64,000 bases of DNA, taken from Escherichia coli. Its GTDB lineage: Bacteria > Pseudomonadota > Gammaproteobacteria > Enterobacterales > Enterobacteriaceae. Position numbers: made by a program. Positions 56,101-59,100 of the stretch are shown piece after piece. Positions within the stretch are counted from its first letter, which is position 1. Every line of letters begins with the position of its first letter. Location of the stretch: the NCBI RefSeq assembly GCF_003334785.1, contig NZ_QOWV01000002.1. One strand, 5' to 3'.

Positions 56101-59100
56101 AGCACGACGCCCCATAACCGTATAAGTAAGCCGACGTTGCTCATTGTCGGTTTTTGCATGACGGGTAGTACCGCAGTCACGGTATTTTCGGTAAATAATT
56201 GCTGGCGGGCCATAATGACGATAATAAAACCAAAGGTATAACCGAGATTCTCCAGCAAGAAGCTGCCCGGCACACCTTCCAGTTCGACTTGAAATATCCC
56301 TTTTGCCAGTAACGAAGCGCCCATCGACAGACCCGCCGCAATGGCTGACCACAGTAGCGCCATTGCGTCGCGTTCCAGCTCTTTTTCACCATCCTGGCGG
56401 ATATGCTCATGAATTGCCATCGCCCGGGAGGGGAGTCGGTCTTCATCTATTTCTATTTTTTTGCCGCGCTCTTTTTCTTCGCTCTCAACTTCAATTTCGT
56501 CGCTGTGTTGATCAATTTTGTCGTTGTCCATGGTCTCTTCTCTTGAATTAGCACGTATAGCTAAAGCGTAGCGGCTTTTTTGCTCGCAACTGACGGGAGT
56601 TACTCTGAAAATGTAGAAAAGGCTGCGTTTGCCTTTTTCTGTTTCTATAGAATCAAGTAGCCTACAGGGCGGCGATTACCAGGCTATGATCAAATCAGCA
56701 AATCAGGGCGTCTGGACATCAGTTGACGTGCTGTTACAATCGCCCACACCTAAACAGGCGGATACGGTATCGTTCCGTCATGGATGGCAAACTGCATAAG
56801 CCATAAAAAAACAGGGAGACATTTATGAAGCTTCGCCTGTCGGCGCTTGCTCTGGGAACTACGCTTCTGGTGGGGTGTGCGAGTTCCGGTACAGATCAGC
56901 AAGGGCGTTCTGACCCGTTAGAAGGGTTCAACCGCACCATGTACAACTTCAACTTCAATGTATTAGACCCGTATATTGTTCGACCGGTCGCTGTCGCCTG
57001 GCGTGATTATGTTCCGCAACCGGCGCGTAACGGTTTGAGCAACTTTACTGGCAACCTTGAAGAACCTGCGGTGATGGTTAACTACTTCTTGCAGGGCGAC
57101 CCTTATCAGGGGATGGTCCACTTTACCCGCTTTTTCCTGAACACCATTTTGGGGATGGGCGGTTTTATTGATGTTGCAGGGATGGCGAACCCGAAACTGC
57201 AACGGACTGAACCTCACCGCTTCGGTAGTACGCTTGGTCATTATGGCGTGGGTTATGGGCCTTACGTTCAGTTACCGTTCTACGGTAGCTTCACGCTGCG
57301 TGATGACGGTGGTGATATGGCGGATGGTCTTTACCCGGTTCTTTCCTGGCTGACCTGGCCGATGTCTGTGGGTAAATGGACGCTTGAAGGGATCGAAACC
57401 CGCGCTCAGCTGCTGGATTCCGATGGTCTGCTGCGTCAGTCGTCCGATCCTTATATTATGGTGCGCGAAGCGTACTTCCAGCGTCATGATTTCATCGCTA
57501 ATGGCGGCGAACTCAAACCGCAGGAAAATCCGAACGCACAAGCGATTCAGGATGATTTAAAAGATATTGATTCTGAATAAGAAACAAATAAAAAAGGTGA
57601 GTCGCAAAACTCACCTTTTTTGTTGTTATCCCTCAATTACCACAAGTAAAAGGAGATAAACCGACAATGACCTAGACGTAATTATGTAAAAATACTGATG
57701 TTCGTCACTGACTATTTCCGATATTCAGCTGTTGAAAAATCAAAAAACTGGAAAAATAATTTTAAATATCATCAAAATTAACACCTGGCGCAGATGGTTG
57801 ATTAATTTCATTTTGATATTCAGCCTGGCGATTTTGAAGCCTTTCTTCAATTTTACCTTCGAGATCCTTAAAATGCTTATATATTTTTTGAGAATGGCCA
57901 ACGTTAATTTTGTTACCGACTAAAGTAGAAACTATTTCTTTTAGATGGTCGCATTTATATTTTGCATCGTCCACTTGAAAATCATATCTTATTGCTCGAC
58001 CATAACGTTTAAAAACGTCGTTTGGTTCTCTCAGTCTTTCCCCGTTGAGCTCGTTTACAACCTGATGATCGGAACCAGTTGCAAATGATTCTGCCATGAT
58101 AGCTTTACTGCTTTCAAACCACGCTGAAGCACTCCTGGCGTTTTCACTACAATATTGGGTGAGACTATCACCATTAATACGAATTCCTCTTTGAATGTGG
58201 TAGTCGTCCTGATCGTAGTAACCGAGAGATAAGTAATCATTTCCGTTTTTATTTTTAATTACAATAGCGAGAGAGTCGCCTTTTTTATCTTTACCGTACC
58301 AGGTAAATAAGTCCGTTGGTTCGCTTTTCCCGCTCTCATCAAATTCCGTTACCGTATGTCTGAGTTTGTGTGATATCTTATCGAAGATAAAACCAGGATC
58401 TCCATCATATATTTCTTTTAATGCGCTGAAGATCATTTCCTTGTTATTGATATCATGAGTCTTCTCAACTATGTTGTCATTAATGATAGTACGGACGAGT
58501 TCTTTGTCTTTATAGTTCGCAGGTAATTCTATTGGTTCTTGGTTGTCGATACCAATAGTAATATGGTCTGTATCATTGGAGTCAATATCAATATAAGTAA
58601 CTGAGGAATTATTAATATTAAATCTATAAGGATCGTCGTTTACTCGTATGGCGTTTTTTATAAGCTCAAGTAGATGTTTAATACAGGTGCTTATTCCTTC
58701 CTTACCATTAAAAAGGTTTTTGAACTCTTGTACTAATCCATTAACTTCATCATTGTTATTTTCATTGATGGATTCTGGGTAAGCTGCGCTGGTATTGTTG
58801 ATTGAAATAGATGGTAGCATGATTTTATTCCATTTTGATTGATTTGTTACAAATATATATTACCTAATGAAATAGACTATCAAAAAACGCTCATTTATTT
58901 AGAACCTATCTTTAATTTGAGTGTATGAGCGCACAATAGCCAGGGGGGGGGAGTATCCTGGAAATGCAGAAAAGTAAACTCTTTGAGAAGGACGAGCAGA
59001 ACGCCTGAAAATATGCCTTTCCCTTCAGGTTTGTCTGTGGATACCGCTTATTGATTTGAAAGGGCAAGCTGCCAACAGGCTGTTTGCAAAACTCAGGAGG

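Follow-up and report, generated by a model that had tools for sequence, protein, structure and literature searches.

A run of nine G residues between yfdF and fadL of Escherichia coli is probably one allele of a slippage-prone, non-coding microsatellite

The nine consecutive G residues in the spacer between yfdF and fadL of Escherichia coli can with good confidence be regarded as one allele of a slippage-prone, non-coding microsatellite, in other words as a mutational hotspot whose length changes are likely to be neutral and that does not serve as a phase-variation switch. The tract was studied in a stretch of E. coli DNA of 64 kb (the window), which in this region shares 100% identity with E. 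coli K-12 MG1655 and runs in the opposite orientation to it. An earlier note, made from the sequence alone, had reported a run of nine Gs at 58943-58951 between yfdF and fadL, and both the run and the gene assignment were confirmed. On the plus strand, the sequence reads ...GCACAATAGCCA GGGGGGGGG AGTATCCTGG..., with CCA and AGT immediately flanking the homopolymer, and the G-rich microsatellite as a whole is bounded by ...AATAGCCA on one side and AGTATCC... on the other. On the strand that encodes fadL (59186-60526, minus strand, RefSeq annotation) and yfdF (57762-58820, minus strand, 352 amino acids, annotated as yfdF or icaT), the tract is a C9 run located 234 nt downstream of the fadL stop codon and 122 nt upstream of the yfdF start codon. 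On the far side of yfdF, RefSeq places mlaA on the plus strand (56825-57580).

The run had also been described as unusual, and this holds true locally: it is the only stretch of seven or more Gs or Cs in the window, where the second-longest G run comprises six residues, and composition models lead us to expect only 0.11-0.15 G runs of at least nine residues in 64 kb, corresponding to a p of about 0.1-0.15 for a window of this size. The same models yield roughly a dozen such G/C runs by chance in a genome of 4.6 Mb, and on that scale the tract lies within chance expectation.

What distinguishes the tract is its variability. Among 21 complete-genome loci, sampled evenly across the 4298 genomes with the spacer, at least ten tract alleles were found. 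Complete genomes and metagenome contigs together give a series of G7-G12, G6-9TG, G5-8TTG, GGGAGGTTG and GGGTGGTTTG. G9 is carried by K-12, ET151 and CUPS04, in each case between AATAGCCA and AGTATCC, G8 by PK6 and Ec-U1, G6TTG by TW10828, D3 and strain 41, G5TTG by O157:H7, and G6TG, G7TG, G8TG and G9TG by B1-type and other strains. GGGAGGTTG occurs in two loci (L013, L021) whose spacers are mismatched to that of K-12 at 12-13 positions, and GGGTGGTTTG in the three most divergent loci sampled (L014-L016). In a spread of 40 rows, decoded from the BLAST signature and including unfetched rows whose alleles were deduced from that signature, rough shares were 23% for G9, 15% for GGGTGGTTTG, 13% for G6TTG, 10% for G8TG and 5-8% for each of the others. 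Alleles were also counted in 5426 complete genomes with exact 87-91-mer queries; K-12-type flanks of 40 nt were preferred over short tract-spanning queries because the BLAST low-complexity filter was expected to mask the G-run. After subtraction of about 89 partial-alignment background records, G8 was present in about 256 genomes, G9 in about 827, G10 in about 60, G11 in 5 and G12 in at least 8; G7 also occurred. One Shigella flexneri genome has G9 with K-12-type flanks. A pattern search spanning the tract in metagenomes returned 16 alleles in 116 usable contigs, many of them SPAdes-style NODE contigs, at frequencies resembling those in complete genomes.

An alignment of the spacer (365 nt) from 127 sequences shows how sharply this diversity is focused: the tract window contains 17 haplotypes, as compared with a median of 3 for other windows of 11 columns. 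Among forty sequences that do not differ from K-12 in the remaining 356 nt, 19 have G9, 10 have G8, 10 have G6TTG and 1 has G10, and near-identical B1-type haplotypes carry G6TG, G7TG, G8TG, G9TG, G8 and G10. Runs of six or more Gs vary within haplotypes, whereas the interrupted alleles GGGAGGTTG and GGGTGGTTTG do not, being monomorphic in 6/6, 6/6, 3/3 and 2/2 cases. The tract requires no fewer than 15 changes, one less than its 16 alleles, and up to 47 by the number of Fitch steps on a flank-built tree, a number inflated by unresolved identical sequences in that tree; at least 12 changes fall among sequences with identical flanks. The flanks average 0.41 changes per column. The natural allele series thus provides good support across strains for the proposed tendency of the tract to vary in length by strand slippage; the comparison of E. 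coli genomes suggested in the earlier note revealed varying and not invariant length, and at the population level the polymorphism on identical flanks speaks for a mutational hotspot. A second, shorter G-run in the same spacer (GTGGGGGAG, window ~59128-59132) has one or two extra Gs in 3-4 of the 127 sequences, a similar though less pronounced length polymorphism.

Two possible functions of the tract sequence itself were considered and rejected. An open reading frame of 51 amino acids runs through the tract (58912-59067), but it is not conserved, because allele lengths of 7-12 nt differ by non-multiples of three. A structured RNA is not apparent either: the spacer fold is weak (z = -1.8), C9 is predicted to be unpaired, and 58700-59300 contains no Rfam match. 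The locus combines what is expected of a neutral hotspot, namely stepwise length alleles on otherwise identical haplotypes, an instability that is tied to the length of the uninterrupted run and spares interrupted alleles, and a tract without coding or structural constraint.

Alignment to strains lacking yfdF delimits an AT-rich islet of ~1.55 kb with 29-42% GC (about 57622-59173); the AT-rich block itself (~57600-58940, 29-42% GC) stands out from surroundings with about 47-53%. The mlaA and fadL flanks were matched in 5426 of 5426 complete E. coli genomes and yfdF in only ~4270, and ~1150 genomes, about a fifth, lack the islet and have the 8 bp CTTATTAA in its place. In islet-free strains (strain G12, ATCC 25922, Seattle 1946), mlaA and fadL are separated by a spacer of 61 bp and converge on one common bidirectional terminator, the hairpin of which corresponds to 57587-57624 and sits after yfdF and mlaA in K-12. 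The position of the tract at the edge of the AT-rich block first raised the suspicion that the G-run marks an edge of the acquired islet. This was dismissed, as the islet ends at ~57622 and ~59173 and takes in the entire 365-bp fadL-yfdF spacer; the tract is therefore internal and does not represent a junction. A search for inverted or direct repeats at the ends of the islet brought up nothing convincing. The mlaA-yfdF-fadL locus is also interrupted by IS5 and IS1A in some genomes (hits H41, H70, H81).

A likely course of events can be outlined. The yfdF/icaT islet would have been acquired horizontally, with a mononucleotide microsatellite residing in its non-coding DNA. The more divergent lineages carry the interrupted G-rich motifs GGGTGGTTTG and GGGAGGTTG, and in A/B1-type lineages the interrupting bases were presumably lost when T changed to G at the run's edge, which would have left uninterrupted runs of six or more Gs. 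Such runs may then have expanded and contracted by replication slippage, at a rate that should rise with uninterrupted run length, to give G7-G12, GnTG and GnTTG, and K-12 would carry G9 by happenstance. This polarity is deduced from comparisons within E. coli, since an exact 23-mer scan covering one genome per species yielded no match outside E. coli that could serve as an outgroup.

The presumed neutrality of the length changes follows from what is known about the downstream gene. H-NS silences yfdF/icaT, MxiE/IpgC activates it via a MxiE box, and the product is a substrate secreted by the type III apparatus of Shigella (Hall et al. 2022, PMC9769918; Silué and Campbell-Valois 2022, PMC9241512). 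The gene occurs in phylogroups A, B1, D and E, is largely missing from B2, and may be a fossil, as suggested by the authors of these studies (PMC9769918, PMC9241512). H-NS binding over yfdF is documented in K-12 (PMC3686432). As the tract is located about 50 bp upstream of the MxiE box and -35 element of a promoter that is silenced by H-NS and cannot be activated in E. coli without the Shigella plasmid, changes in tract length are most likely neutral. The protein has no match in Pfam-A or NCBIfam, although its published name alludes to transposase homology, and its function therefore adds nothing to the question of the tract. YfdF homologues come in forms of 352 and about 399-430 amino acids, and one and the same YfdF protein sequence occurs together with three different tract alleles.

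The promoter itself is well conserved. The 17-bp MxiE box TGAGCGTTTTTTGATAG is found on the minus strand at 58877-58893 and agrees exactly with the yfdF entry in Table S2 of PMC9769918, which puts the start of the box 73 nt upstream of the gene. All 20 yfdF-positive genome loci have the exact box, as do 114 of the 117 metagenome contigs. The MxiE box overlaps the -35 region (PMC9769918, PMC9241512). On this basis and from the sequence, a putative core promoter can be placed at 58854-58883 on the minus strand, with a -35-like TTGATA inside the box (58883-58878), TAATAT/TATATA as -10 candidates (58862-58854) and a predicted yfdF start site near 58847. The tract lies 49 nt upstream of the box, roughly at -95 to -105 relative to the predicted start, and thus outside the core promoter as well as outside the interval between activator site and -10 element. 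Departures from this arrangement were encountered in two settings. In three metagenome contigs (L038, L082, L091), the DNA on the yfdF side of the box is unrelated (...GGGTTCTTTCGC/ACTATCAAAAAACG, breakpoint ~58875), which suggests another insertion or rearrangement between box and -10 element. A locus of the S. boydii type (L151, tract G7TTG) carries a change in the box equivalent to G6-to-T (TGAGCTTTTTTTGATAG, window 58888) at a position that published MxiE-box mutagenesis has shown to be critical; this change is consistent with promoter decay in some Shigella lineages.

A further role of the tract is conceivable, albeit held tentatively and with less than even expectation: a long uninterrupted G-run may be a natural landing site for the insertion sequence ISEc20, such that slippage creates and destroys the target, with pure runs being competent and interrupted ones not. 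In strain GZ04-0083, an IS110-like ISEc20 of 1.45 kb resides exactly within the tract (L142 1750-3198, window 58943-58951), with the junctions CCAGGGGGG/TGCCCC on the left and GTAACGGGG/AGT on the right. The same junction is present in 85 of the 5426 complete genomes, and all 60 matches listed are 100% identical over 311 nt; as these genomes appear to represent one clone, a single insertion event is probable. ISEc20 also occurs at ~8 other sites with unrelated flanks (9 further loci; L143-L145, L153-L159). All of these have G5-9 on the left, a count that may include Gs borne by the element, and the eight right junctions recovered consist of a G-rich run, G4-5 in every case except L154 (GGAGGGGAGG). 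Empty fadL-yfdF sites are G7-G12, and a diverged empty copy of another ISEc20 site reads GGGGGAG. The element thus appears to live in G-runs, and its distribution suggests a preference for poly-G targets. Its 5' non-coding region, for which an Rfam search gave no match, is predicted to form a long stem-loop (z = -2.9) containing UUCCCCCAG and CCGGGGGGUG with segments of C5 and G6. If long G-runs do act as landing sites, the G9 allele of K-12 would be open to insertion and G5TTG and GGGTGGTTTG would not; an insertion in the tract separates the yfdF/icaT promoter from its upstream DNA.

The suggestion that the tract could modulate yfdF expression, by contrast, received no support from our analysis and is unlikely on positional grounds. 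In its most developed form it would hold that tract length tunes yfdF/icaT expression through helical phasing, DNA geometry or the upstream edge of an H-NS filament. It is true that the tract is located at the upstream edge of the H-NS-bound AT-rich block, with 29-35% GC towards yfdF and ~46% towards fadL, that the published promoter reporter, which extends from the fadL stop codon to codon 60 of yfdF, contained it, as judged from the primers (PMC9769918), and that the tract is extensively polymorphic. The distance of 49 nt to an activator box that overlaps the -35 region nevertheless means that no promoter spacing changes with tract length, and the alleles track run length, as slippage predicts. 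Moreover, yfdF/icaT of K-12 and of O157:H7 are both induced by MxiE/IpgC (PMC9241512), K-12 having G9 and the sampled O157:H7 genomes, from which the allele of the induced strain is deduced, having G5TTG; activation of such different alleles deprives a regulatory role of support. Selection on any tuning would also be hard to see, because MxiE/IpgC is missing from most E. coli, in which the gene stays silenced. The G tract is mentioned neither in the text of PMC9769918 nor in that of PMC9241512. Taken together, a tuning function is improbable.

Even less can be said for a contribution of the tract to transcription termination, which we consider highly improbable. The C9 run on the fadL transcript would here be part of a C-rich, G-poor Rho-utilisation region that stops read-through before yfdF, read-through that would need stopping since the islet displaced the original intrinsic terminator of fadL. 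In K-12, fadL is followed only by a hairpin with a perfect 13-bp stem directly after the stop codon (59140-59168) that lacks a U-tract, and a terminator scan called no intrinsic terminator in 58700-59300. The earlier placement of the G-run between the fadL terminator and the yfdF promoter is thus correct as to position, but the terminator it presupposes is this hairpin without U-tract. The RNA strand is richer in C than in G over 58800-59100 (plus-strand GC skew +0.19 to +0.25) and contains CUCCCCCAC, CCUCC and C9. The idea is nonetheless speculation derived from composition alone, and CAACCCCC or CAAACCACCC replaces the tract in many lineages with no sign of constraint. The three-nucleotide loop of the hairpin (59153-59155) is TAT in 93 and ATA in 34 of the 127 sequences; the three adjacent changes are fully linked and equal the reverse complement of the loop, the signature of hairpin-templated loop inversion.

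Finally, an artefact of homopolymer sequencing or assembly has already been largely refuted as the source of the length variation and carries next to no weight: long-read-only assemblies do miscall homopolymers and some K-12-labelled assemblies do show G8, but independent assemblies of one strain agree, as for ATCC 8739 (three assemblies with G10, an allele shared by KCTC 2571) and for E. coli W (two assemblies with G8, as well as derivatives of the strain), so that the variation must be real, the metagenome contigs yield the same alleles, and many alleles are distinguished by substitutions, with T or A interrupting the run, in linkage with flank haplotypes or SNPs. The K-12-labelled assemblies with G8 instead of G9 are NZ_CP025268.1 (MG1655) and NZ_CP026085.1 ('DH5alpha'), in which G8 could reflect either real slippage in laboratory stocks or a homopolymer assembly error.

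For practical purposes, the slippage-prone microsatellite provides an apparently neutral length marker of high resolution within E. coli lineages and a predictable hotspot of false or real variants in K-12 resequencing, although this practical value is modest. Interpreting it as a phase-variation switch of yfdF/icaT would be a mistake. More can be learned from the context than from the tract itself, which lies upstream of a 'fossil' gene for a Shigella-type effector with an exact MxiE box in K-12. If the observations on ISEc20 hold, rare long G-runs would serve an IS110-family recombinase as natural targets, and this would bear on natural target choice in the family.

Elements of the IS110 family are mobilized by bridge-RNA-guided recombinases such as that of IS621. 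ISEc20 resembles the targets and elements known from this family in that it is found precisely in the tract in the 85 genomes and shares the G-run context at the other sites examined. For the stem-loop in its 5' non-coding region, pairing between guide and target is conjectural. Comparison with the MxiE/IpgC regulon, which includes ipaH, ospE, yccE, yjgL/icaR and yfdF/icaT (PMC9769918, PMC9241512), places the adjacent promoter, with its 17-bp box overlapping the -35 region, among the validated members, whereas the G tract is located outside both the box and the core promoter.

A homopolymer of G or C that differs in length among isolates and lies upstream of a gene of horizontal origin whose product is secreted or surface-related calls to mind classical phase-variable promoters, and the yfdF tract does share with them the hypermutable simple repeat. 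Promoter phase variation by homopolymers is exemplified by the poly-G tracts of Neisseria porA and opc and the poly-C tracts of Bordetella fim2 and fim3. There the repeat occupies either the -35/-10 spacer or the interval from the activator site to the -10 element, and its length sets promoter geometry for that reason. The yfdF tract, in contrast, lies neither in such an interval nor in an open reading frame; it is situated 49 nt upstream of the activator box, and promoters with different alleles are inducible.

The G.C runs of 8 bp within leuP, leuQ, leuV and leuT constitute indel hotspots in mutation-accumulation lines defective in mismatch repair (PMC8510543). The text-form supplementary mutation tables of that study do not list yfdF or fadL, and a literature search for mutations in the fadL/yfdF intergenic region found no paper naming one. 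As in the leu genes, the tract consists of an uninterrupted G.C run that changes its length stepwise, its instability depends on run length, and interruptions stabilise it. The difference is that mutation rates were measured there, while the variation described here is natural polymorphism among strains, in which the alleles persist because the site is non-coding and apparently unconstrained.
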